Virus record (IMG/VR): IMGVR_UViG_3300045977_000336
Coordinates: 1-64,000 of that record
DNA length: 64,000 bases
DNA from: a virus
Direction: 5' to 3' (one strand)
Shown: piece by piece, positions 12,951 to 45,094 of the stretch
How positions within the stretch are numbered: the first letter of the stretch is position 1
Layout of the letters: the number at the start of each line of letters is the position of its first letter
Translations under genes and position numbers: made by a program
Notes under the pieces: generated by a model
The model's input: only the letters and a program-made list of their open reading frames with translations
Database searches by the model: none
Told to the model about the DNA's origin: nothing

Positions 12951-13513
12951 CAGGTCACTACCTCGCTGTCAGGATTGTCAAACACCCACCCGGCTTTTTG
13001 TCGCCACACGTAAATGATGCCCGGATCGAGCATGAACACGACTTGCCCGCTGGCATCGGTCACACCGTTCGCAATCACACTTTGCCCGAGCGCGTCCGAC
13101 GTCACCCACACCGCCGCACCCACGATCGGCGCGCCGTCCACGTCGCTCGTGAGCGTGTAGGTCCACGGGGCTGCACCGCTGCCTGAAAACAGGCCGATGC
13201 TCAACGCCGGATCGACCGCGTACACTTGCAGCGTGTCGCCAGGACATTCCGCCGTATTGCTGCTTTTGTAACGCGTCTCGATCACCGTGCCCAACGTCGC
13301 TAAGGCGGCCTGCGTCAGTTCGGCGTAATAACGCCCGTTGCCGATCGCGACCAACGTTCCGATCCCGCTGGCCGTCCACGCGGCCCCGTTGAGACTGATC
13401 TGCGGCTGACCTCCGCCCTCGCCGTTGGCAGGCGTGATGCCGTCCGTAGCGACGAGTTGAAAAAAGACGCGTCGCTTGCTGGCAATTTCTTCGTTGACTT
13501 TGATCGGCCTCAT
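12950..13513 (-). CDS. Virion-associated protein with C-terminal Ig/prealbumin-like domain
   Basis: GAPIVGAAVWV...GVTDASGQVVF motif. Confidence 0.6.
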   Translation of the reverse strand: MRPIKVNEEIASKRRVFFQLVATDGITPANGEGGGQPQISLNGAAWTASGIGTLVAIGNGRYYAELTQAALATLGTVIETRYKSSNTAECPGDTLQVYAVDPALSIGLFSGSGAAPWTYTLTSDVDGAPIVGAAVWVTSDALGQSVIANGVTDASGQVVFMLDPGIIYVWRQKAGWVFDNPDSEVVT

Positions 13514-34264: not shown

Positions 34265-34311
34265 GGATCTCCGCACAGAGTTAACTGATTGAATTTTAGA
34301 ACCGGATCACG

Positions 34312-34491
34312 TCACATAATTGGATCGAAGTGCTCCGTGATTTTCGGCTTGACCGTTTTTCCGTGGCACTCCACCTCGATCGTCTTGTGGCCGTGCGTGA
34401 TGTCATCGCTCTGCTTCAGCATCCAGAGGATAATGGCTTCCAGCCTAGCTGGCACTTCCTGCTTCTTTCCATCGGGGAGAACGATGACCAT
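34312..34491 (-). CDS. 59-aa protein, probably leaderless (not in ORF track)
   Basis: MVIVLPDGKKQEVPARLEAIILWMLKQSDDITHGHKTIEVECHGKTVKPKITEHFDPIM*. Confidence 0.6.
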   Translation of the reverse strand: MVIVLPDGKKQEVPARLEAIILWMLKQSDDITHGHKTIEVECHGKTVKPKITEHFDPIM

Positions 34492-34497
34492 ATCCCT

Positions 34498-34527
34498 ATT
34501 TTACGCCCGCTTCGTTTGAAAAGTCAA
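34498..34527 (-). promoter_or_regulatory. Sigma70-type promoter at head of late operon
   Basis: TTGACT-N18-TAAAAT; ATG starts 7 nt downstream of the -10. Confidence 0.6.
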
Positions 34528-34580
34528 TATAGTGAACCACTACAAAAACGGTACACAATACAAACCGCGGGGGCAAACAG

Positions 34581-34690
34581 ATGGGCTTGACAATTAGCGT
34601 CAGGCCCATTTTTAACGCTGCGCGCGGCTGCCGAATAGCCACCGAAACTGCTTGAAGGTGGTTACTGGGCAAGCGTAAACTACACTTACA
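34581..34690. repeat. Structured ~110-bp element, copy A
   Basis: Two hairpins; direct diverged homolog of 43417-43530. Confidence 0.8.
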
Positions 34691-34769
34691 GAGGTTGTGT
34701 GTCAAACGTCATGCGCGGCGGATGACAAACGATCCGCAAACTGCCATCATCTGATTCACTACTACACGG

Positions 34770-35594
34770 CTAAGTATTCGCTCTGTCTAATTTTGGAGAA
34801 AATGGAGGAAGCTCTGAGGCTGCTCGCACGATATTCGATAATCCGCTAATTGTTCGTTGTGGGAATTCATCCCAAGTACGACCATCCAAAATGCGGCCAC
34901 CCGCACTTGGGGTGCGTCCCCCCCACTGCTTAAAGAAGAAAGCAATACCTGTTCGACGACATCGATCTCGAAGATCCTTGATCCAATCCGGTTTACAGGT
35001 GCGATACCCAGGGCCGCTTTCTCCGCCTGCAATCAGCCAGTGAATATCTTTCAAGTCTAAGCCTTTCAGTGAGTCTAGTAGAGGCTCAGCGCTTATGAAA
35101 CGGATAGCAGATGGAACTTTGCGAAGTCGATCGACGCGCCACGCATAACTCATTGTTTCGACAGATACACCCATCCAAATGTTCATCGGCCATGTTGTTG
35201 AGCCAGTGATCGTACTAAGATGTCGGGTAATAGCGGGCACCAAACTAACTAGGCGTGAAGGGCGCTTTGTAAGCACCTGATAAGTGTGCCAGTTTGCTAA
35301 CGCCATTGTTGTAAAAACTTGCAGGATGAACTGCTCGGGGATATCACGATGGAAGAGATCAGACATCGAATTAACGAAGATGCGCCGGGGCTTCTTCCAA
35401 GTTATAGGGTAATTGAGTCGTTCCGGCCATAGCCGCAAATCAAACCCTTGCTCAAAGTGATGCCCTGGGATTCCTCTCCAGCGTTCAGCAAAGGTTCTGG
35501 CGTAACAATGATCGCATCCAGGCGAAACTTCTGTGCATCCAGTGACAGGGTTCCAAGTGGCGTCTGTCCATTCGATAGTCGAATTAAGACTCAT
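34770..35594 (-). CDS. DUF5131 / phage Gp37-Gp68 family protein (CxxxxxxCxxC, radical-SAM-like)
   Basis: IEWTDATWNPVTGCTEVSPGCDHCYA, FVNSMSDLFH, GGESG, FFKQWGG. Confidence 0.93.
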   Translation of the reverse strand: MSLNSTIEWTDATWNPVTGCTEVSPGCDHCYARTFAERWRGIPGHHFEQGFDLRLWPERLNYPITWKKPRRIFVNSMSDLFHRDIPEQFILQVFTTMALANWHTYQVLTKRPSRLVSLVPAITRHLSTITGSTTWPMNIWMGVSVETMSYAWRVDRLRKVPSAIRFISAEPLLDSLKGLDLKDIHWLIAGGESGPGYRTCKPDWIKDLRDRCRRTGIAFFFKQWGGRTPSAGGRILDGRTWDEFPQRTISGLSNIVRAASELPPFSPKLDRANT

Positions 35595-35644
35595 TCCTTT
35601 CTCCCCCTATAGAACATCTTACCTCATTCATGTGTCACCTAATG

Positions 35645-36817
35645 TCACAACGCAAAAGTTATCCGGGTGTTGTCATCACTTAATGCGCCATCATGAGAAA
35701 GAATAATACCATCTTTAACCAGCTGCCTCAAGGCCTCGGTCACGTGAGGGCCCTTGATCTGACCAAAGTGATGCTCCAGTAATAGCGCATGAAGATCGAG
35801 GCGCGTGAGAGAGTGCCCATTGCCTTGGGCGTGCCTGCCAGCCGTAGTCATATATTTAGTGATATCTTGCACTTTCGCCTCAAAAATTTCTTTAGGACTA
35901 GGATCGATGATAGCAAACATGGTCATTTGAGGACTGGCCTTATAGTGCTCCTTATAGCGCTCAAGATCCCGTTGATACTCCTCCTCAATCTTATAAACGA
36001 TGTTACTGGCCAGAATCAACCCCTTCTTGTTGGCTGTTGCAAAAATTAAATAATACTTGATATCCTCCTGCAGTGAGCCAATACGATATGCAGCCGAATA
36101 ACCCTGCCCTTTATTCCGAACAAAATCCCTATTCAAACGTTGAAGGTACAGTTCAACTGCGCGCTCCTTACGTGCTTCGGGATCGGCCGCCTGCAAAGCC
36201 TGATGGAGCTTATCGTTGTCTGATATTCCATAAACACGAGTTAAAATCTCGAATTGCTTATCTGCACCAGGCAACGAGGATCTATAGTAACCATCGCGGC
36301 GACGCACTTCATCGGCGTCAAATCTTAGCCAAAGGTCGGTGGGGGGTTTGCGCGCTATTAACTGTTGGACGGCTTTCCAGTCCATTCCGTCTACACCGAA
36401 TGGATCTAAAAAGCACACTGCCGGATATCGTCCCATCGCTTTCAGAATTGTGGCAATACTGTCGGCAAATGTTCCTGAGATATTCTGGACATACTGTGCA
36501 TAGGAAACAGTTACCCTTTCGAGTTCATCAAATGTGTCCCGATCGGATTCAACGTTGATACATCGCAGAGCGTAAGGCTTCGAACTTGCCGCAAACTCCT
36601 TTGCCAGCTGGGCGGCCTGCAACGGAGATCCAGGAATTTGAACCTCACCGGCCTTCCCGTAGCTGCCTCGTCCGGCGAATCCATCTAAATAATAGACGCG
36701 GCCATAACTGCTTAGGATTTTGGTCGAGCTCTCCAGATATTGTTTGATCAGTTGGAGTTTACGCTCGGACCATTCTTTAAGATCGTCGAAAAATCTGAGA
36801 TTGGCGGATGGCGTCAT
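35645..36817 (-). CDS. tcmP: Three-Cys-motif partner protein (methyltransferase-like with C-terminal wHTH)
   Basis: WSERKL, YLDGFAGRG, GSPL, FLDPFG, YYLIFAT; adjacent to DUF5131. Confidence 0.85.
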   Translation of the reverse strand: MTPSANLRFFDDLKEWSERKLQLIKQYLESSTKILSSYGRVYYLDGFAGRGSYGKAGEVQIPGSPLQAAQLAKEFAASSKPYALRCINVESDRDTFDELERVTVSYAQYVQNISGTFADSIATILKAMGRYPAVCFLDPFGVDGMDWKAVQQLIARKPPTDLWLRFDADEVRRRDGYYRSSLPGADKQFEILTRVYGISDNDKLHQALQAADPEARKERAVELYLQRLNRDFVRNKGQGYSAAYRIGSLQEDIKYYLIFATANKKGLILASNIVYKIEEEYQRDLERYKEHYKASPQMTMFAIIDPSPKEIFEAKVQDITKYMTTAGRHAQGNGHSLTRLDLHALLLEHHFGQIKGPHVTEALRQLVKDGIILSHDGALSDDNTRITFAL

Positions 36818-36870
36818 TGGCTTCCTTTCGGCTGAACGACAATCAGGCATGGATTAGTGGCTGCGGTTTG

Positions 36871-37569
36871 CTATCGCAGTGCTTCAAGTTTTTTAAGCAG
36901 CAAATTCAAAAAGACGATAAATGCCCCACCCTCCTCAGGCGAAGGATCTATTAAGCGATGTGCGTACGGGTTACGGATCACCCCAAAAACGCCGGCATAT
37001 AATTCGCGATAACCTTGCAACTCAGATTCATTAGTAAATTTATGCGCTAGTGTTCCTTCTTTACCAAAGATGGCATTGACTAAATTGCGGCCGTCACTTT
37101 TGGGGCCAGTAATTCCACTAACATCCTTAAGTCGCTCCTCCAGAATTACGGCGGCGGTGCGTACGGCAGAATCCCACAGCACCGGGTCAGTTCCACCAGC
37201 CGCAAGAAGGGGTAGGCACCGCTGCTTGATCTCTTCATCGAAGTCTGAAATATCGTCCAATGGCGTAAGGTATTTCAAGAAGGAGTTGTCAGGCTGTTGA
37301 AAGTTGGAATCAACTGCTTCAAACGCAGTGCCAGTCAACACAAACCGCCACGTGTGCCGACCACGGTCAACTATATTGATCAACTGGTTCGATTCAAGCA
37401 CAGTTAATGTCCCTTGCTTAAGATCTGGATGGTCACCGCGATAATTGATTACGCTTGAGCCTCCCATAGTCCAGGTCACCATTATCTCTTCCCCCAGAGA
37501 GCCGTTACGAGACTGTTCGACAAGAAACTCAATTACTGCTTTCTGACTATCCGTAAGGTTGTATGGCAT
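36871..37569 (-). CDS. TIGR02391-like (HEPN-like) protein with N-terminal wHTH
   Basis: SAVRTA..LEERL, GRNLVNAIF, IRNPYAH. Confidence 0.75.
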   Translation of the reverse strand: MPYNLTDSQKAVIEFLVEQSRNGSLGEEIMVTWTMGGSSVINYRGDHPDLKQGTLTVLESNQLINIVDRGRHTWRFVLTGTAFEAVDSNFQQPDNSFLKYLTPLDDISDFDEEIKQRCLPLLAAGGTDPVLWDSAVRTAAVILEERLKDVSGITGPKSDGRNLVNAIFGKEGTLAHKFTNESELQGYRELYAGVFGVIRNPYAHRLIDPSPEEGGAFIVFLNLLLKKLEALR

Positions 37570-37638
37570 GATTGTTTTATACTCTCACATGAAAATGACA
37601 GGCTGGCAAGCAGCAGAAGAGACTGGTTACCATGGCGC

Positions 37639-38547
37639 TTATTCTGAATCACTTGAGGGTAATACCGCGTCTTCATCATTCTCTACTACCGTGACTTCAG
37701 CGCCGTGGGCCTTCCAGTCCTCCACAAGTGCAAGGCGATACTCTTCGTCTGGCTCTGCCTCACACAAAGTTCCCAATTCAACCCCAATATCAGTTAACGG
37801 GTAACATCCAATTTGTAGCCAGGGTTGAGCATTAATAATATGACGTTTGTCAAAATACGTGGCCTCAAATGGATTATTTTCTTCGGCAACAGTTAGGGCG
37901 GCGTCAGATGTAGCCGATAACAGGCCTAGTGATTGAAGGTGGACAAGGTCAATGAAACCCAGGTCTCGTCGTTTCATAATTTCTGTTGACGCGCCACCGT
38001 ACAGATGAACATATCCATTCCATATATAAGCATTAAAGCGCTGGAATAATTTGGCATCCTCTGGGCTCAGCACCCGAACGGTTTGTAGCGTACGAAGCGA
38101 GAAACTTCCCGGTTCTGCAACTTCCCCAGCAAGCAACTTTGCCCACAGCTGCTGCATTTCATTATTTCCAATATCTTGGGCGTAATTGAAGAATTGAACA
38201 ATCCAATCCTCATCGACTGGTTGATTGTTTACAGACGTCGGCAATTGATCAATTGCTTGGTCAACAATAACATCAATGTTTCGCTGCCGTCTGATTTCCA
38301 GATTCTTCGTACGCTCTTGGGCCTGCTCTGCCAGCAGTTGCAATTCAATTTCACTTTCAGCCTTAATTAAGGCAGCGTCGCCTTCAGCGCGCGCGGCAAC
38401 CCTCAGCGCGTATGCATCAGCGTCCGCTTTGCGGCGAATGCGCTTTGGCTCATACGATGCACCCACCGCTGCTCTTACAGCCTCGATTAACTTGCTGATA
38501 GGCTCAGTTAGATTGAGGTTAATCAAAGAGGATGACGGATCTGGCAT
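37639..38547 (-). CDS. DUF2806-like protein
   Basis: RRQRNI, VDEDWI, MQQLWAKLLAGE..PGSFSLRTL. Confidence 0.85.
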   Translation of the reverse strand: MPDPSSSLINLNLTEPISKLIEAVRAAVGASYEPKRIRRKADADAYALRVAARAEGDAALIKAESEIELQLLAEQAQERTKNLEIRRQRNIDVIVDQAIDQLPTSVNNQPVDEDWIVQFFNYAQDIGNNEMQQLWAKLLAGEVAEPGSFSLRTLQTVRVLSPEDAKLFQRFNAYIWNGYVHLYGGASTEIMKRRDLGFIDLVHLQSLGLLSATSDAALTVAEENNPFEATYFDKRHIINAQPWLQIGCYPLTDIGVELGTLCEAEPDEEYRLALVEDWKAHGAEVTVVENDEDAVLPSSDSE

Positions 38548-38611
38548 TAGACCTCCCAATTTCGCCTTAACCCAGTCGGCGCGCAATCAAAGATTATCGA
38601 TCCCATCGCGA

Positions 38612-41431
38612 TTAGTCCGACTTAATATTGGCGGCTCGCTCCAGATTCAACGCCAGCAGCCGCGCCAGGATTTCATCATCGCTCAGGTCGGTCGGCCAGC
38701 CATAAGCGGCGAAGACGGCCGCGTCGAGTTTTTTGTGCGCGTTGTCGAGCCAGGTTGGCCGCGCATTGTACAGGTTCGTCAGCGTTTGTTTCTTTAACTC
38801 GGCTTCACTCGCGTCTGGTGGGTTAAGCCACGCGTCACGCAACTGAACGAGATCCCGCGCAGCCTCAGCGATAGCCTGCACAAGTGGATTAGTCTTGGGC
38901 TCTTTGCCCGGCGGCCACGGAAAGGCGAACGTTTCAAAAGTGGATGTGGGCGTGTAACGTGTTCCGCTCTCCGCTTCTCGTAGTTGCGTCGCCTTACGAC
39001 GCGACCAAAGTTCATGAATCCTGGAATGCAGTACACCAAAGAAGTAATCGTCATCCCGTGCGACAACGATCACGAGGTTTTCAGGCACAACATTTATGGA
39101 TTGCCATACAAATATACGATGCTTTGATACCATCGGTGTTACTATATACCGCATCAAAGGCGTGATAGCCCTGCGCATTCCGGGCCTGGTATCTCCAAAG
39201 AGCCACCACTTTTTACGATGCGCTGCTCGGCGCACTTTATCCCGTACTGGCTTGACGTGCTTTTTCACATACTCAAATGGCATTTCATATTTGGCCGCTT
39301 CGGCAAGTGGCATATCTGGTCCGAAGTCGATGATCCACATACGCCGCGGATTCTGTGTCACATCGATTGCATTTATCCACGGTTTAACTACATCACTGTT
39401 TGGGCGCTTGTTAGGATTCCCTTTTGTGGCGAGCATTTCTTGAGCTTGTGGCTCAGTCAGATCAAATGGTCCCGACTTCTGAGTGCCAACGAAGCTCAAT
39501 CTCGCATTCTCCGTCAATGTTTCCGCTGTTGTTAGATCAGCAGTGCTCGACAAATCAGAGTTGATATTGCCAACTTGCTTACCGTCTAAAACCCGCTTTC
39601 CTTCCATCCCCTTATCAAACCCTATCATCGCAACATGGACTATGGCACCATCGAGAACCCAGTCTCGATCAGATTCAGCAAAGAAGATATCTCCAGTTTG
39701 CTTGATGCGATCCAGTACCGTCCGATTCAGTCCCCCCCGAATACCTTGCGTTGCGAGCAGACCAACCCTCTGCGTAACGCCCAACTCGATCATACTCCTC
39801 GCCTTCTCAAGCCAATAGCAGACAAGATCGCTTCCGCCGGGAATGCGATCTGTATACAGAGATCTCAATGCATCAACGTATTTATCGCCGAGTTCGCGAC
39901 GCATTTTCCGATCGCCAACGAACGGCGGATTGCCGACGATCACATCGGCAGCCGGCCACTTTGGCTCGGCCGGCTGGCCAGTCTCGTCGAAGGCGAGAAT
40001 GGCATCCATCTGCTGAACTGTATCGATGGGCCTCAAGATCGGCTCGGGTGGAAAGCCAAACCCATTCAGATCGAACCACTGAATATAGCCGATCCAGATG
40101 GTGGTCCGCGCCAGTTCCTGGGCGTATTCGTCCTTCTCGATGCCGTATAATTGCGCCGGCGACGGAGCCACGTCTGGCATCGGCATCAGGCGCGGAAAGC
40201 CTAACTCGGCCATGAGGTTTGAAACTTCTTTCCACAGGTCGAGCAGCGAGACCAGGGCGAGATAGAGAAAATTCCCGCTACCGCAGGCAGGGTCGAGCAC
40301 GGAGGTGTCGGCCAGTTCGGTGGCAAATCCGATTAGCCGATCGCGCAGTTGCTTGTCGAGTTTCGTCTTCTTCGCGCCGGCGGCCGCTTTGCGCTGCGCG
40401 GCCAGGTCGCTGGCCTGCTGCTGCACCTCGGCCCATTTCCGGCGCAGCGGCGCCATGAGCACCGGCTCAAGGATTAAAAGAATATCCTCTTTACTGGTGT
40501 ACTGCGCGCCTAACTGCGCACGCTTTGATGGGTCCAGGCTGCGCACAAACAACGTGCCGAAGATCGACGGCTCAATGCTGGACCAATCGAGGGTACTCAC
40601 CCGCCGCAAGATCTCCAGGCCGTCAGTGTCCAACTCAAATGCAGCCGCATTGTCGAACAGCCGGCCGTTGAAGTATTTGATTTCATCGGCTCCAAAGAAA
40701 CCGCCCGTGGCCATGGCCTGAAAAAGTTGCCGCACCTGGGGCACGAACGTCTTCGGTTTTTGACGGGCCTGTGTCACGATGCGCGTAAACAACCGATCGG
40801 GCAGTAACCCCACGTCCTCGGCAAACAGGCAGAAGAGACAACGGATCAAAAAGTGCGCGGCCTCGTGCGGAGGCGTGCCATATTGGCGCAGCAGCTCGGC
40901 CAACCGGGCAAATTCCGCGGCTGCTTGCTGGGTCACCTGCTCGGTGGTTTGAGCGGCTTTGAAGAAATCGGGATCGTGGAAGACGGCGCGCACTTGGTGC
41001 AAGCCGTCACTCGTGACAAGATCTTTTAGTGTGATCGTGTGGACCTTGTGGACCGTGTTGGTGAAGTTGGTGTGCACCACAATGCGATCCATGTCGCACA
41101 CGACCAGCAGCGGCGGGTTAAGCAGGTCGGAGCGATACTGAAGCAGTTGGCTGTATGCCTTGTCGAGGTTGGCGTGCTTGCCCTTATACTCCCAGCCGAA
41201 GAATCCACGCTTGAAAACATCGGCGAAGCCGTGGCCGCCGTCTTGTTTGGAGGCGCCGTATTCGAATGCGAAGCGCTCACCGGTGGGATCGTCTTCGGCC
41301 GGCGTCGGGTGGCCAATCAGATGGCAGAGGTCGAGGAAGTGTTCCTGGCAAGCAGCCCGTTCTTTGAGTTCGACGTGCCGCCATTTATCGACGAAGGCCT
41401 GCGGGGTCAGGATCGGTGATATACTGGACAT
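38612..41431 (-). CDS. MmeI-like type IIG/IIL restriction-modification enzyme
   Basis: N-terminal AD..WEYK nuclease motif; DPACGSGNF; GNPPF; C-terminal TRD. Confidence 0.9.
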   Translation of the reverse strand: MSSISPILTPQAFVDKWRHVELKERAACQEHFLDLCHLIGHPTPAEDDPTGERFAFEYGASKQDGGHGFADVFKRGFFGWEYKGKHANLDKAYSQLLQYRSDLLNPPLLVVCDMDRIVVHTNFTNTVHKVHTITLKDLVTSDGLHQVRAVFHDPDFFKAAQTTEQVTQQAAAEFARLAELLRQYGTPPHEAAHFLIRCLFCLFAEDVGLLPDRLFTRIVTQARQKPKTFVPQVRQLFQAMATGGFFGADEIKYFNGRLFDNAAAFELDTDGLEILRRVSTLDWSSIEPSIFGTLFVRSLDPSKRAQLGAQYTSKEDILLILEPVLMAPLRRKWAEVQQQASDLAAQRKAAAGAKKTKLDKQLRDRLIGFATELADTSVLDPACGSGNFLYLALVSLLDLWKEVSNLMAELGFPRLMPMPDVAPSPAQLYGIEKDEYAQELARTTIWIGYIQWFDLNGFGFPPEPILRPIDTVQQMDAILAFDETGQPAEPKWPAADVIVGNPPFVGDRKMRRELGDKYVDALRSLYTDRIPGGSDLVCYWLEKARSMIELGVTQRVGLLATQGIRGGLNRTVLDRIKQTGDIFFAESDRDWVLDGAIVHVAMIGFDKGMEGKRVLDGKQVGNINSDLSSTADLTTAETLTENARLSFVGTQKSGPFDLTEPQAQEMLATKGNPNKRPNSDVVKPWINAIDVTQNPRRMWIIDFGPDMPLAEAAKYEMPFEYVKKHVKPVRDKVRRAAHRKKWWLFGDTRPGMRRAITPLMRYIVTPMVSKHRIFVWQSINVVPENLVIVVARDDDYFFGVLHSRIHELWSRRKATQLREAESGTRYTPTSTFETFAFPWPPGKEPKTNPLVQAIAEAARDLVQLRDAWLNPPDASEAELKKQTLTNLYNARPTWLDNAHKKLDAAVFAAYGWPTDLSDDEILARLLALNLERAANIKSD

Positions 41432-41629
41432 ATCGACGTGGACGCTCCGCGTTGATCAAGCCCCGGCTGTTGGTAGCAGTGCGGGGCGTTCTGCTGGCAG
41501 TATAGCACACGCCGGTGATTAGCAGAAATGCGACTGGAGCGCTGACCGCATCTTTTCTCGGAAACACTGGCTTGAATACTACATCGGTCACGCTGTTATG
41601 CCCTACGCCCTCGCTCATTGCCCAGTCTG

Positions 41630-42565
41630 TTACTTGGCCCACTCGGCCTGGTCAACCACGATTTCGTATCTATCATTTGATTGTGTTGGTGCTTTCACTA
41701 TCACCTGGTAGGTAGATAATTGTCCGGGAAAAATGACATCGCTATCTGGTGCTCCATAAACGGTGTTGAGCACATGATTACTATTGTCTTTAATTCGGAG
41801 CAATAACCGTATCCGATCAATTGGCAGATCACATAGATTCTTGAGCGTCCCAGATACCTGTATATTGGCGGCCGTACGTTTCGCTTCGCGTGACATGATC
41901 CCTATACATGTCACTACACTCGTCGATCCGAATCGGTTAATAATGGGCGTTACAGTTGCCGACACAGCGGCCGGGGCGGACTGTATATTTGTCGTCGCCG
42001 GTGCCCTTGGCGCGGCCCAGACGATCATCGCGCCGGTTGCCAATCCACCTAACAATAATACAACTAACACGGCCTGTCGTGCCATTACTGCACCAGCCAT
42101 TGCCCCGGCCATAATCAACCCGAATACCATGATATTTTCAGGCTGAATCGTTATACCGCGCCACACAAGATAGGATATGCTTAATAGCCCGACTCCGGCG
42201 CTTATCAAAACGCCGCGCCTAGGAGTCGCTAGCCGCCCGATAACCAGACCGCCTATGAAGAAGCTGAGCGGATAAGCAAGAAACAAACCAAGATCGATTG
42301 ATGTAGTGAAATCAATCGTGCCCTGCTGATACATCGAGCGAATAATTCCGGTACTGACATAGAACAGAACGCCGGCAACAAACAGGCCCACAAGGGCGGC
42401 CGCCCCTGAGCGCCAGTCAAATCTGATTTTTCCGCTGTCTTTGGCTGTGACTTGCATAGATGGTGTGACCGCAGAGGGCACATGCACACGCAGATCATGT
42501 CCACAATACCGGCAAACAATAGCTGCTTCTTGGATTTCCTCGGCGCAGTAAGGGCAACGCTTCAT
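41630..42565 (-). CDS. Zinc-ribbon membrane protein with C-terminal FxLYD-like Ig domain
   Basis: [13 protein letters not shown]; several TMs; VSGTLKN..IKD. Confidence 0.75.
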
Positions 42566-42610
42566 GGCTTCCTCCAGGGATTCAAGTGTTATATTTGCTA
42601 TGGTGTCCTC

Positions 42611-43186
42611 CTAGCTCTCGCACCCGATCCCGTCGCCATCCTTGTCAAATCCATGAGGGTCGGGTGGCAGGACCCGGAACTTTTTATGCGGCGCCAGATC
42701 CTTGCAATTCAAATCGGGCGGTGGCGGAGCGATGCAGAAATCTGGATAGGCCGGATCGCAATTCCCCGTCTGCGGCTCAGGCGTCCAGGTCCACGTCGGC
42801 TCCGGCAGCGGCGTATCCGTCGGGATGATGGGCTGTGGGGTGTTCGTAGGGACGATCGGGACTGGCGTGTTGGTCGCCACGATCGGCGCTGATGTGCGCG
42901 TTGGTGCAGGCGGTTTCGTCGGGGCCTTGGTCGATGTGGCCACCACCGTCGCGCTGGGCTGCGGCGTGATAGACGGTCGCGGGGTATCAGTTGCTGCCAG
43001 CGTTGAGGTTGGCAATGGGTGTCGCGTGTCTGTGGGAAGGATCGTCGTCAACGTCGACGCGGGTGTGGCGCTGGCCACCTCAATGACCATCTCGACGGTT
43101 GCCACAGGCGTGGCCGGCGGCCGGTCCGGTACCGCACAGGCGGCGAGTAATGCCGTCACGATTACAGCGAGGGATCTATGTCTCAT
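42611..43186 (-). CDS. Pro/Thr-rich lipoprotein with Excalibur-like Ca-binding C-terminus
   Basis: Lipobox LAAC; CDPAYP..DKDGDGIGCE. Confidence 0.8.
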   Translation of the reverse strand: MRHRSLAVIVTALLAACAVPDRPPATPVATVEMVIEVASATPASTLTTILPTDTRHPLPTSTLAATDTPRPSITPQPSATVVATSTKAPTKPPAPTRTSAPIVATNTPVPIVPTNTPQPIIPTDTPLPEPTWTWTPEPQTGNCDPAYPDFCIAPPPPDLNCKDLAPHKKFRVLPPDPHGFDKDGDGIGCES

Positions 43187-43333
43187 CGTTGGACTCCATC
43201 CAGATTGATGGTCAGACAACAAAACGCGAGAGATAGCCTGTCACCATCTCCCGCCCCCGCTGACTTCAGTGTATTACGATTGCGTCGTTCTGTAAATAAG
43301 TAAAACTACGTAGGACATCCGTTCTGAGTCCTG

Positions 43334-43386
43334 GTGTTTCCGCGGCACCCTATGGCCCGCCGCTGACGGCGGACACGGGCAAACAC
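43334..43386. repeat. Composite element lacking the central palindrome
   Basis: GTGTTTCCGCGGCACC..TGGCCCGCCG..CGGACACGGGCAAACAC; inverted homolog of 47288-47367. Confidence 0.75.
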
Positions 43387-43416
43387 GTCCGGCGCAAGGT
43401 CTCGCCATGAAGAAAG

Positions 43417-43547
43417 GACGGGCCTGACGATAAGCGTCAGACCCGTCACCGTACACCGCTCTCGCGGCTGCCCAGTAGCTTCCTATACTGCCAGGAGGTG
43501 GCTACTGGGCAATTGTGAATCACTCTTACACATGAGCGGTTCACAAT
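43417..43547. repeat. Structured element copy B, ending in candidate attP palindrome (43512-43547)
   Basis: ATTGTGAA..ACTC-TTA-CA-CAT-GAGC..TTCACAAT, just downstream of the integrase stop. Confidence 0.65.
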
Positions 43548-43570
43548 GTCCGATACAGCGGGCCATTCTA

Positions 43571-45094
43571 TCACCGCCCCAGGTTATGCCGGATGGGAAT
43601 GACCTTGGACCGCCCAAAGATCGTCTCGATCACAATGCCCCGCCGGCCGTCGCTCCGCGCCTTCAGCACCACCCGCACCCGCAGCGCCTCCAGCACCTTC
43701 TGCCGCACCACCTCGTCGGGATCGTCCAGCATCTCGCGCAGCTGCTCGGCATTTTCGCTCACCGTCACCCGGGCTTGTTCGTCCAGCGCCGCGTCGCGCT
43801 GATCGGCCTGCTCCCCTGCCCGTTCGGCTTCCAGCGCCTTGATGTCGCGCGATAAGGTCCGGATCTTATCGGCGGCGACCGTCGCCAGTGTCTCGTCGTC
43901 GGAGAAGTCGTCCATCAGCACAGCGATGCGTTTCTTGAGACGCTCGATCTGGCGCTCGATTTCTTCCGCGTGCGCTGGGGGCTGGCGCGTCTTGCGCTTT
44001 TGCTGTGCCTGATGAGTCCCCTGCTCTAGTCGCTCGGGCGTCAGCTGCTCGCGCAGGTGATCCCACACCACCGACTCGATCGACGACCGGTACACCTTGC
44101 CGAAACCGCAGCGGCCAACCACCGTAGCATGGCCCGCAGCCTGCCCTCTCTTTTCGGGGGTACCGGCCACCGGCGCATTCTGCGACGTGCAGCGATACAG
44201 GATCCCGCTCTCGCCGAACATCTTGCGGCCGCAGGCGCACAGCAGCCGGTTCGACAACGCATACTCATGTTTCCGATTGCGCCGCGCGAATTCCTTATTC
44301 TGCGCTTTGAGGCGCTGGGCCAGGTCAAACTGCCTGCGCTCGATGACGGCCAGCTCCGGCAGCGGAATCAGAATGCCGGCGTATTCGATCTCGCCGATGT
44401 AGGCGCGCGTGCTCAGGATGCGCTTGACGGTGCTCCACCACCACACCCCGCCCGTCGGCGACGGTACGCGCTCCCGGTTCAGTGCTTCGGCGATGGCGCG
44501 GATGCCCAAGCGCTTCTGTGTGTAATCATTGAAGATGCGCTGCACGACCTTCAAGACCGCCGGTACTTTCACCAGCCGTGACTCACCTTTGAGTCCCTCT
44601 TTGCGATAACCATACGGCGCATGGCCCCCGCCTGGCCACTTCCCCGCCCGCGCCTTGCCACGCCGCCCGGCGATCGAGCCGCGCACCAGGATGTCGATCT
44701 GGTATTGGCTGAACGCGCCTTCGACGTTACTGGACAGGTTCGCTTCCGGCGTGTCTTCGATCAGACCGCGCGTGGTCGTGTACAGTTGCAACTTGAGCCG
44801 CTTGATCTCACTGCGCAGCGCCAGCTGCACCTCCAGCCCGCGCGAGAGCCGATCCATGACGAACACGACCACGGCCCTAATCCGGCCCTGCTCGGCCAGG
44901 GCCCGCATCGTTCGCACGTCCTTGCGATCGGCCGTGAATCCCGTCTTCGCCTCGGTGACGAATTCGACGATGCGGATCTGGTGCGTATCCGCAAAATTCT
45001 GGATGGCGCGCTTCTGCTCGGGGACCGAATACCCCTGCCGTTCCTGTCTTTTGCTGGAGACCCGGATCATGCCGAGCGCGGGAATCAACGCCAT
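43571..45094 (-). CDS. Large serine recombinase (integrase)
   Basis: IRVSS catalytic motif, DRLSR, APYGY, Zn-ribbon and coiled coil. Confidence 0.95.
   Translation of the reverse strand: MALIPALGMIRVSSKRQERQGYSVPEQKRAIQNFADTHQIRIVEFVTEAKTGFTADRKDVRTMRALAEQGRIRAVVVFVMDRLSRGLEVQLALRSEIKRLKLQLYTTTRGLIEDTPEANLSSNVEGAFSQYQIDILVRGSIAGRRGKARAGKWPGGGHAPYGYRKEGLKGESRLVKVPAVLKVVQRIFNDYTQKRLGIRAIAEALNRERVPSPTGGVWWWSTVKRILSTRAYIGEIEYAGILIPLPELAVIERRQFDLAQRLKAQNKEFARRNRKHEYALSNRLLCACGRKMFGESGILYRCTSQNAPVAGTPEKRGQAAGHATVVGRCGFGKVYRSSIESVVWDHLREQLTPERLEQGTHQAQQKRKTRQPPAHAEEIERQIERLKKRIAVLMDDFSDDETLATVAADKIRTLSRDIKALEAERAGEQADQRDAALDEQARVTVSENAEQLREMLDDPDEVVRQKVLEALRVRVVLKARSDGRRGIVIETIFGRSKVIPIRHNLGR

Follow-up and report, generated by a model that had tools for sequence, protein, structure and literature searches.

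A degenerate second copy of a small RNA-like element may mark an older attachment-site junction in a soil phage with a serine integrase

Phages and islands that use tyrosine integrases target genes for transfer RNA (tRNA), transfer-messenger RNA (tmRNA) and small RNA (sRNA) and carry a replacement for the end of the gene, and tandem islands with decaying copies of the attachment (att) site occur among them. The att pairs described for serine integrases share a few bases only. The phage attachment site (attP) of serine-integrase phages such as A118/LI, phiC31, Bxb1 and SPbeta is a pseudo-palindrome by the integrase gene with a central dinucleotide, and the products are hybrid sites (PMC3783163). 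Here we describe a locus in the IMG/VR virus record IMGVR_UViG_3300045977_000336, in which a candidate attP beside a serine integrase gene overlaps a structured element, B. A degenerate copy of the same unit, A, lies on the far side of a block of accessory genes, referred to below as the cargo. The window, i.e. the whole stretch of DNA that was analysed, consists of the first 64 kb of this 78,418-bp record, which is classed as linear with an estimated completeness of 83%. Homologues of the unit, termed element E, are found on the chromosomes of two bacteria, the Anaerolineae metagenome-assembled genome (MAG) G001 and G408, a second species of the same order. We favour, at about even strength, the reading that B is the working attP and that A marks an earlier junction, which remained after DNA had been added at the integrase site. 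The features concerned are as follows.

43571..45094, minus strand: large serine integrase of 507 amino acids (aa), with Pfam Resolvase (PF00239, 2.4e-21) and Recombinase (PF07508, 6.8e-12)
43512..43547, no strand assigned: 36-bp imperfect palindrome, candidate attP core, with arms at 43512-43525 and 43534-43547
43403..43536, minus strand: element B, intact phage copy of the host-type element E, with 5' tail, long hairpin (43469-43511), terminator hairpin (43417-43447) and U-rich run
34691..34769, no strand assigned: spacer that separates A from the last cargo gene; in the minus-strand reading it is the arm upstream of the TG of A
34581..34690, minus strand: element A, degenerate copy of E
34535..34561, minus strand: host-like flank past the terminator of A, a 21/26 collinear match to the flank after E in G408 and G001
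34312..34527, minus strand: conserved 59-aa gene with a promoter-like site (TTGACT-18-TAAAAT, from a promoter scan), the first conserved late-side phage gene

Read along the minus strand, the serine integrase is followed by B, seven accessory genes (34770-43222), A, the 59-aa gene, a small winged-helix gene and a holin-like gene. The original prediction had described A (34581-34690) and B (43417-43530) as repeats in direct orientation whose likeness breaks off at the centre of the palindrome, and this was borne out. The two are collinear with about 75% identity and a local alignment score of 68, compared with 14.2 +/- 2.1 for shuffled sequences, and a profile of both (nhmmer) recovered just these two copies across the complete 78,418-bp record. 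The similarity ends at CTTACA, the last two bases of which are the central CA of the palindrome. Past this point the right flanks are no more alike than shuffled sequences (p=0.31 over 60 nucleotides (nt), p=0.89 over 150 nt).

The integrase combines the resolvase and recombinase domains with the Cys-rich region of the large serine integrases. Cys286, Cys288, Cys302 and Cys329 are invariant in an alignment with seven homologues, and we take these four residues to be the zinc ribbon; PF13408 gave no match in the clade of this integrase. The nearest homologues are 58% and 47% identical, and one in the Anaerolineae MAG G001 is 46% identical. Searches of IMG/VR with the integrase alone or with TerL returned no close relative.

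The arms of the palindrome are complementary at 12 of 14 positions and are separated by 8 nt. Its centre falls between 43529 and 43530, at a CA dinucleotide (TG on the minus strand), with the end of its right arm 24 nt away from the stop codon of the integrase (43571-43573). The arm at 43534-43547 is a phage-specific arm, P', and an inverted copy of the E tail, whereas the arm at 43512-43525 is the 5' end of B itself. Minus-strand reading leads from the integrase stop codon through 24 nt to ATTGTGAACCGCTC, ATGTGTAA and GAGTGATTCACAAT, after which come the hairpins. Of the two arms, the second is the 5' tail of E, matching the chromosomal copies at 17 of 18 positions. Phage DNA surrounds the integrase gene on both sides, which means that the record represents the unintegrated form, in which an intact attP is expected. 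A pseudo-palindrome with a central dinucleotide is thus present near the integrase gene, and B looks like the attP of this integrase, with crossover at or beside the CA/TG; we infer both the identity of the palindrome as attP and the crossover at TG. The attP sites of large serine integrases measure about 50 bp. The att half-sites of A118 are 25 bp long (PMC3783163). Symmetry fades here beyond 18 bp per arm, and the site looks shorter than that of A118 (PMC3783163). No comparable palindrome or repeat was found upstream of the integrase. A search with a pattern of the P' arm and core gave one match, in a coding region without an integrase, which was treated as chance.

A BLAST search with B against 401 Chloroflexota genomes gave strong matches in G001 only, in two places (E-values of 8e-8 and 5e-7, on contigs C190 and C389), and both are full-length homologues of B. 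G408 has an orthologous copy that is 98% identical over 161 nt, with surrounding genes at 90-92%. Searches of 22 genomes of the order, a class sample of 151 and a phylum sample of 401 gave E in no further genome, and its 22-nt tail had no match in IMG/VR. Genomes flagged as unpublished (G146, G174, G273, G345 and G406) underlie none of the conclusions. On C190 of G001 and C246 of G408, E follows ftsY and a release-factor gene. Past the release-factor stop, the chromosomal copy has a putative promoter (TTGACA-17-GATAAT, read from the sequence), a small hairpin, a Shine-Dalgarno-like run and ATGTGTAAGAGTG, where the conserved unit of E starts. Downstream of E lies, in G001, a gene for a STAND NTPase of 1065 aa (L081 1081-4278) and, in G408, a 330-nt remnant of a STAND NTPase gene (L096 17460-17792) followed by metabolic genes. 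Since this gene is whole in one species and a remnant in the other, the bacterial DNA directly downstream of E varies as well. From the distribution of E, bacteria of this Anaerolineae order are likely the host lineage of the phage; the phage portal protein was absent from the 22 host-order genomes searched.

E is about 120 nt long and is read in the minus-strand sense, like the integrase. Its parts are a conserved 5' tail that is single-stranded, a long hairpin and a predicted intrinsic terminator. The chromosomal E folds at -62.4 kcal/mol (z=-8.0 in the window-minus sense, z=-4.8 on the other strand) into the 5' tail, a hairpin of 13+4 bp and a terminator stem followed by GUUUUGUUUUG; the hairpin arm of the B type is UGCCCAGUAGC. 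B itself folds with a z-score of -6.2, and a terminator scan calls a terminator-like site in it on the minus strand. When the three chromosomal copies alone are made into a covariance model, this model matches the whole of B on the minus strand (41.4 bits, E-value about 1e-10). In the alignment with B, 99% of the cells pair and six of the 32 pairs are changed on both sides, compared with none in slid controls. These six double changes between phage and chromosome fall in the long stem (four), its inner stem (one) and the terminator (one), and a U.G pair in the terminator stem becomes an A.C mismatch if the other strand is read. The pairs are thus kept through two-sided changes, as in structured non-coding RNAs, across two independent lineages. 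In the window no Rfam family matched at its gathering threshold, and sub-threshold matches fell only at B and at the chromosomal copy. The likeness of B to McaS/IsrA extends over the full length but is weak (22 bits against a threshold of 42). On these grounds E is read as an sRNA-like gene of about 120 nt with chromosomal homologues. A small protein (MCKS..., 16 codons from the ATG, overlapping the hairpin) was considered and rejected: the peptide is conserved at 10 of 16 positions only, while the stem covaries, and the unit is therefore read as RNA. A contig from an RNA library spans 42607-43686, though no strand is given and it may derive from DNA. The tip of the long hairpin carries CCACCUCC in all copies (L081 4362-4484; window 43470-43500), the anti-Shine-Dalgarno sequence of 16S ribosomal RNA. 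A possible pairing partner for it in the chromosomal copy is a GGAGGAGGUGG run shortly before the ATG.

A trace of an integrated state is seen on a third contig of G001, C213 (12158-12600; L109 1513-1950). Here the 3' end of an integrase gene, 96 codons in length and 62% identical to residues 414-507 of the phage enzyme, is followed by ATTGTGACCCGCTT, which is the same integrase-side arm, by the 13-nt core ATGTGTAAGAGTG, and then by DNA that is not E. The far arm is unrelated to E and lacks dyad symmetry, contig C213 has no other phage gene, and the far side of the junction was found in G001 and in no other genome. Integrase-side arm, core and bacterial arm are what a relative that had integrated and later eroded would be expected to leave. 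The original prediction, which had named the central CA/TG as the crossover and B as attP, gains support from this arm and core running into unrelated DNA, as the junction lies at the predicted site rather than elsewhere. The evidence for a hybrid site consists of this one junction, behind a truncated integrase of 62% identity. All the breaks observed (between A and B, between C190 and C389, and between B and C213) lie within a few nt of the TG: just 5' of it for A and B, 5' of the ATG for the two G001 copies, and 8 nt 3' of it for B and C213. The C213 junction and the second G001 copy, on C389, might represent opposite ends of a single element that has eroded, although different contigs carry them. 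Past the C213 junction lies a different small structured unit, which starts with the same 13 nt and has a strong terminator; it may be a paralogous target gene.

In comparison with B, element A is much decayed. It lacks both the ATG-equivalent and the tail motif, its U-run is weak, and mismatches occur at two positions of the long hairpin and at one of the terminator stem. The covariance model of the chromosomal copies gives A 6.1 bits, compared with 41.4 for B, and its fold (z=-1.95) is barely above shuffled sequences. In the 5' tail, identity is 12/18 between A and B, 11/18 between A and the host copies and 17/18 between B and the host copies. A is closest to B in the long hairpin (35/45), the spacer (12/15) and the terminator loop (21/25). 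Outside the unit, A is accompanied by some 50 nt of flank resembling that of the host, positioned relative to the terminator as in G408 and G001 (p=0.001 against shuffles), and B has no such flank. Since A has kept a flank that B lacks, A reads as a decayed older copy of the repeat unit that retains neighbouring DNA and lies directly against the conserved late region. Of the claim that A is a decayed hybrid att site, the decay stands (6 bits compared with 41; z of -1.95 compared with -6.2), and a junction tied to the integrase site is plausible and has a firmer footing than before.

The spacer at 34691-34769 showed no similarity above shuffles to the flank of B (P' arm included) or to the host flanks; TTGACA in this spacer and TAGTTT inside A form a sigma-70-like pair, as read from the sequence. 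A plus-strand terminator reading of A was rejected because neither B nor the host copies conserve it, and a likeness of the cargo-side flank of A to chromosomal flanks was rejected as not significant. An IS200/IS605-like element was rejected as well, as the TTAC-type ends and subterminal hairpins come with no TnpA or TnpB and with the wrong geometry, and attC sites were rejected for want of IntI. Further searches were made with the 16-mer GGTGGYTACTGGGCAA in IMG/VR (24 matches, all chance), with an H1 25-mer (none found) and with a two-block pattern in metagenome contigs (40 matches, none homologous by nhmmer).

One syntenic relative bears on the block between A and B. An alignment-based scan with the integrase found a single viral contig, L027 (41%), besides G001 (L028, 46%). 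In L027 the integrase is followed by 1.8 kb of unrelated genes, mostly on the opposite strand, and then by homologues of the 59-aa protein (42%) and the holin-like protein (57%). The 59-aa homologue (13280-13510) lies 1.8 kb from the integrase and is preceded by TTGACT-17-TAAGAT, read from the sequence. Since the stretch between integrase and 59-aa gene is unrelated in the two phages, it is their variable part, and in the window A and B stand at its two edges. It had been suggested that relatives be compared for variable cargo; this stretch indeed varies in the sole syntenic relative, but no sequence like A or B was found in L027. A search with the holin-like gene gave two distant contigs without the integrase. 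The plus-strand open reading frame at 34289-34519 is an antisense shadow of the 59-aa gene.

The history that we propose would start from B as the working copy, with its 5' tail as one arm of attP and the inverted copy by the integrase stop as the other, and with strand exchange at the central TG (CA on the plus strand). Integration at the 5' end of a chromosomal E would give a prophage flanked by E on both sides, with the phage E now behind the host promoter and the chromosomal E behind the integrase. An abnormal excision that ran past the integrase-side junction would take with it the neighbouring chromosomal E and the genes behind it, closing at or next to the TG of the other junction. The product would have the order integrase arm, TG, newer E, chromosomal genes, foreign arm, TG, older E, older flank and phage. 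Once B and the block of defence genes had come between A and the integrase arm, A would be out of use, and it would now be decaying. We infer that att-linked capture by abnormal excision is the most economical route, as it would explain the one-sided duplication, the break at TG, the decay of the inner copy and the host-like flank of A. It would also explain why relatives of the MmeI-like cargo gene described below occur in the same order of bacteria, though without the present neighbours.

Several observations weigh against this history. The zinc-ribbon motif lies 5 bp nearer the centre in half-sites of bacterial attachment sites (attB) than in those of attP (PMC3783163), and the tail of the chromosomal E is of the P type, being nearly identical to the phage P arm (17/18). 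Under that half-site model (PMC3783163), the chromosomal sites may be old hybrid junctions rather than unoccupied attB sites. In that case the bacteria may have retained E as DNA brought by phages, which fits its 98% conservation compared with about 92% for its neighbours. Furthermore, the flank of B is unlike the chromosomal flank, which is unexpected if the source host resembled G001; no chromosome was found to carry the cargo genes behind E, and cargo genes other than the MmeI-like one were not found next to E in any genome. The mixed base composition of the cargo argues against a single capture. The covariation comes from two independent lineages only, in an alignment fitted to the structure. 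No lysogen, attB-attP pair or excision joint was seen, and the contigs of four soil runs (contigs only) are continuous from A through the cargo to B. A joint of A-left to B-right was absent from those contigs, which, being contigs only, give no evidence of absence. A and B are also each other's closest relatives in the long hairpin, and a simple duplication fits this too.

Such a duplication, either of an sRNA/terminator cassette within the phage lineage or through recombination of two related phages, would have been followed by illegitimate insertion of the accessory genes, with the edge at the palindrome centre being the 5' limit of the unit. We take this possibility seriously but rate it as fairly unlikely. 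The mutual closeness of A and B in long hairpin, spacer and terminator loop speaks for it, as do the mixed composition of the cargo and the absence of any excision or integration joint from the soil contigs; the two G001 copies stop matching at the same ATG without an integrase beside them, so the unit has a natural edge. What it does not account for is that this edge is also the centre of a 12/14 palindrome by a serine integrase and that a junction lies behind a truncated related integrase. Under it, moreover, only chance would explain why the two copies exactly bracket the one variable region beside the integrase, and A is degenerate rather than maintained. A duplicated sRNA gene had been offered as the alternative in the original prediction, and this was half right in that the repeat unit is sRNA-like and has chromosomal homologues.

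The route preferred there, in which a circular cargo was inserted into attP by the integrase in the manner of an integron hotspot and A is the hybrid site, appears improbable to us. The break of A and B at the central dinucleotide and the variability of the region by the integrase in one relative are as it would predict, but insertion of a circle would yield one copy to the left of the crossover and would not duplicate 110 nt on one of its sides. The incoming site would need an E with a P-type arm, and serine integrases do not synapse P with P (PMC3783163). The cargo has at least three GC (guanine-plus-cytosine) classes, and with two copies, no array and no further cassettes, integron-like repeated capture found no support. 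Less probable still is that integrase, B and cargo form a separate integrative element of the TnpX- or Ccr-like type inserted in the phage, with A and the region upstream of the integrase as its ends. The location of the genes from 34770 to 45094 on one strand, between divergent late and early modules, is consistent with this, but the integrase, 59-aa gene and holin-like gene are syntenic in L027, no repeat or palindrome lies upstream of the integrase, and the integrase region has the GC content of the phage.

The cargo is an 8.5-kb block of seven co-oriented genes (34770-43222), which we read, on the basis of the domain assignments below, as a defence-type accessory set.

42611..43222, minus strand: 203-aa cargo gene, weak Excalibur-like C-terminus, phage-like GC content of 0.59-0.61
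41630..42565, minus strand: 311-aa cargo gene, N-terminal zinc ribbon (Pfam Zn_ribbon_3)
38612..41431, minus strand: 939-aa MmeI-like fused restriction-modification enzyme, with all five MmeI domains in Pfam
37639..38586, minus strand: 315-aa cargo gene, DUF2806 / Abi_alpha-like (Pfam DUF2806, 1.6e-44)
36871..37569, minus strand: 232-aa cargo gene, Hypoth_Ymh family (PF09509, 3e-18)
35645..36850, minus strand: 401-aa cargo gene, no Pfam match
34770..35594, minus strand: 274-aa cargo gene, DUF5131 (Pfam DUF5131, 5.7e-94)

The MmeI-like gene points to the host lineage as its source. It is 85% identical at the aa level and 80% at the nt level to a gene in G407:C820, and relatives at 64-74% are found in G408, G403 and G411; these genomes all belong to the order of G001. 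In G408 there are four paralogues, at 63-74%. None of these relatives has the same neighbouring genes, and on this basis the MmeI-like gene appears to travel as a single gene. Several broken MmeI-like copies also occur in that order. The 203-aa protein has relatives in the host order for its C-terminal 50 aa only.

The cargo had been described as a block of lower GC beginning right after A. The content does drop from about 0.60 to 0.49 immediately to the right of A, but the block is not uniform: the 0.9 kb beside B (42500-43400) is at 0.59-0.61 and the 3' half of the MmeI-like gene at 0.59. The values are 0.58-0.59 for the host-order contigs, 0.60 for the phage and 0.52 for the cargo. With phage-like content near B and in part of the MmeI-like gene, the block is by composition a mosaic rather than a uniform insert.

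Between B and the 203-aa gene (43226-43296) are a promoter-like site, TTTACA-17-TACACT, and a second terminator-like hairpin. These signals lie right before the listed TTG start, and the true start of the 203-aa gene may therefore be further downstream. A second DUF5131-containing gene, of 474 aa and longer than the cargo copy at 34770-35594, is located in the early region at 62926-64350.

The record is that of a phage with terminase, portal and lysis genes. Past the holin-like gene lie the terminase, the portal and the remaining late genes, and the early genes run in the opposite direction from about 45.4 kb. No tRNA or tmRNA gene was found, and megablast with 18 kb gave no match among GenBank phages. 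The same phage is present at 100% identity in four soil runs, the contigs of which were compared with the window. In one of these, X2, one contig matches the window up to 34630, which is inside A between the terminator and the long hairpin, and continues with 255 nt of unlike sequence; it may represent a variant or a differently arranged relative.

If the att-linked reading is correct, this is a natural serine-integrase phage that duplicates its whole target gene, with an att pair that can be predicted from sequence. Duplication of a whole target gene has been described for tyrosine integrases. The locus would also be a dated fossil of a defence island entering a phage beside its attachment site, which bears on the origin of phage-borne anti-phage systems. 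E would be a new candidate regulatory RNA with an anti-Shine-Dalgarno-like motif in the Anaerolineae, a poorly studied soil group, one that the phage copies and probably also interrupts. The link through E further assigns a probable host order to an orphan soil phage. A wider speculation, which we think unlikely, is that the accessory region of temperate phages with serine integrases can grow in steps. Each abnormal excision linked to the integrase would harvest the target RNA gene together with the defence island that lies behind it, beside the attachment site of the phage, and would leave the old copy further in as a fossil; each integration would replace the host regulatory RNA by the phage version.

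Compared with the described systems, the locus resembles a serine-integrase attP in the palindrome adjoining the integrase gene, the central dinucleotide and the Resolvase and Recombinase domains. It differs in that one arm is the 5' end of a full-length structured gene that is also chromosomal, with about 120 nt in common on one side. The duplicated target gene, the flanking direct repeats and the degenerate older repeats that bracket cargo are features of tyrosine-integrase islands, whereas here a serine integrase is involved, the duplication takes in nearly the entire gene, starting at its fifth nucleotide, and the relic is in the phage, not in the chromosome. The chromosomal E is like known sRNAs with Rho-independent terminators in its apparent sigma-70-like promoter, single-stranded 5' part, stable hairpin and U-run terminator, and unlike them in belonging to no Rfam family at threshold. 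The proposed route recalls the lambda gal and bio transducing phages in taking att-adjacent chromosomal DNA and leaving a hybrid att site, but both junctions would be kept and nothing essential lost, the enzyme is a serine integrase, and the event is reconstructed from a fossil. An integron, with its IntI tyrosine recombinase, its attI and its cassettes that each end in an attC, differs from this block, where the sole recombinase is the serine integrase and seven genes lie between one pair of repeats, with two repeat copies in all.

Staphylococcal cassette chromosome (SCC) elements accrete in the chromosome by repeated integration of circles at a regenerated site. The present locus shares with SCC/SCCmec, which use Ccr at the 3' end of rlmH, a large serine recombinase and, on the favoured reading, internal att boundaries between blocks of different age. 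Accretion would have occurred here in a phage, without Ccr or rlmH and with a 110-nt repeat on one side of the crossover, and the chromosomal E lies behind a release-factor gene. In SCC composite islands, internal att boundaries separate the blocks and record their order of arrival (PMC13739063). These islands are, by analogy, the nearest described case of large-serine-recombinase internal att boundaries that record the order in which blocks arrived (PMC13739063), as A and B may do in this phage.

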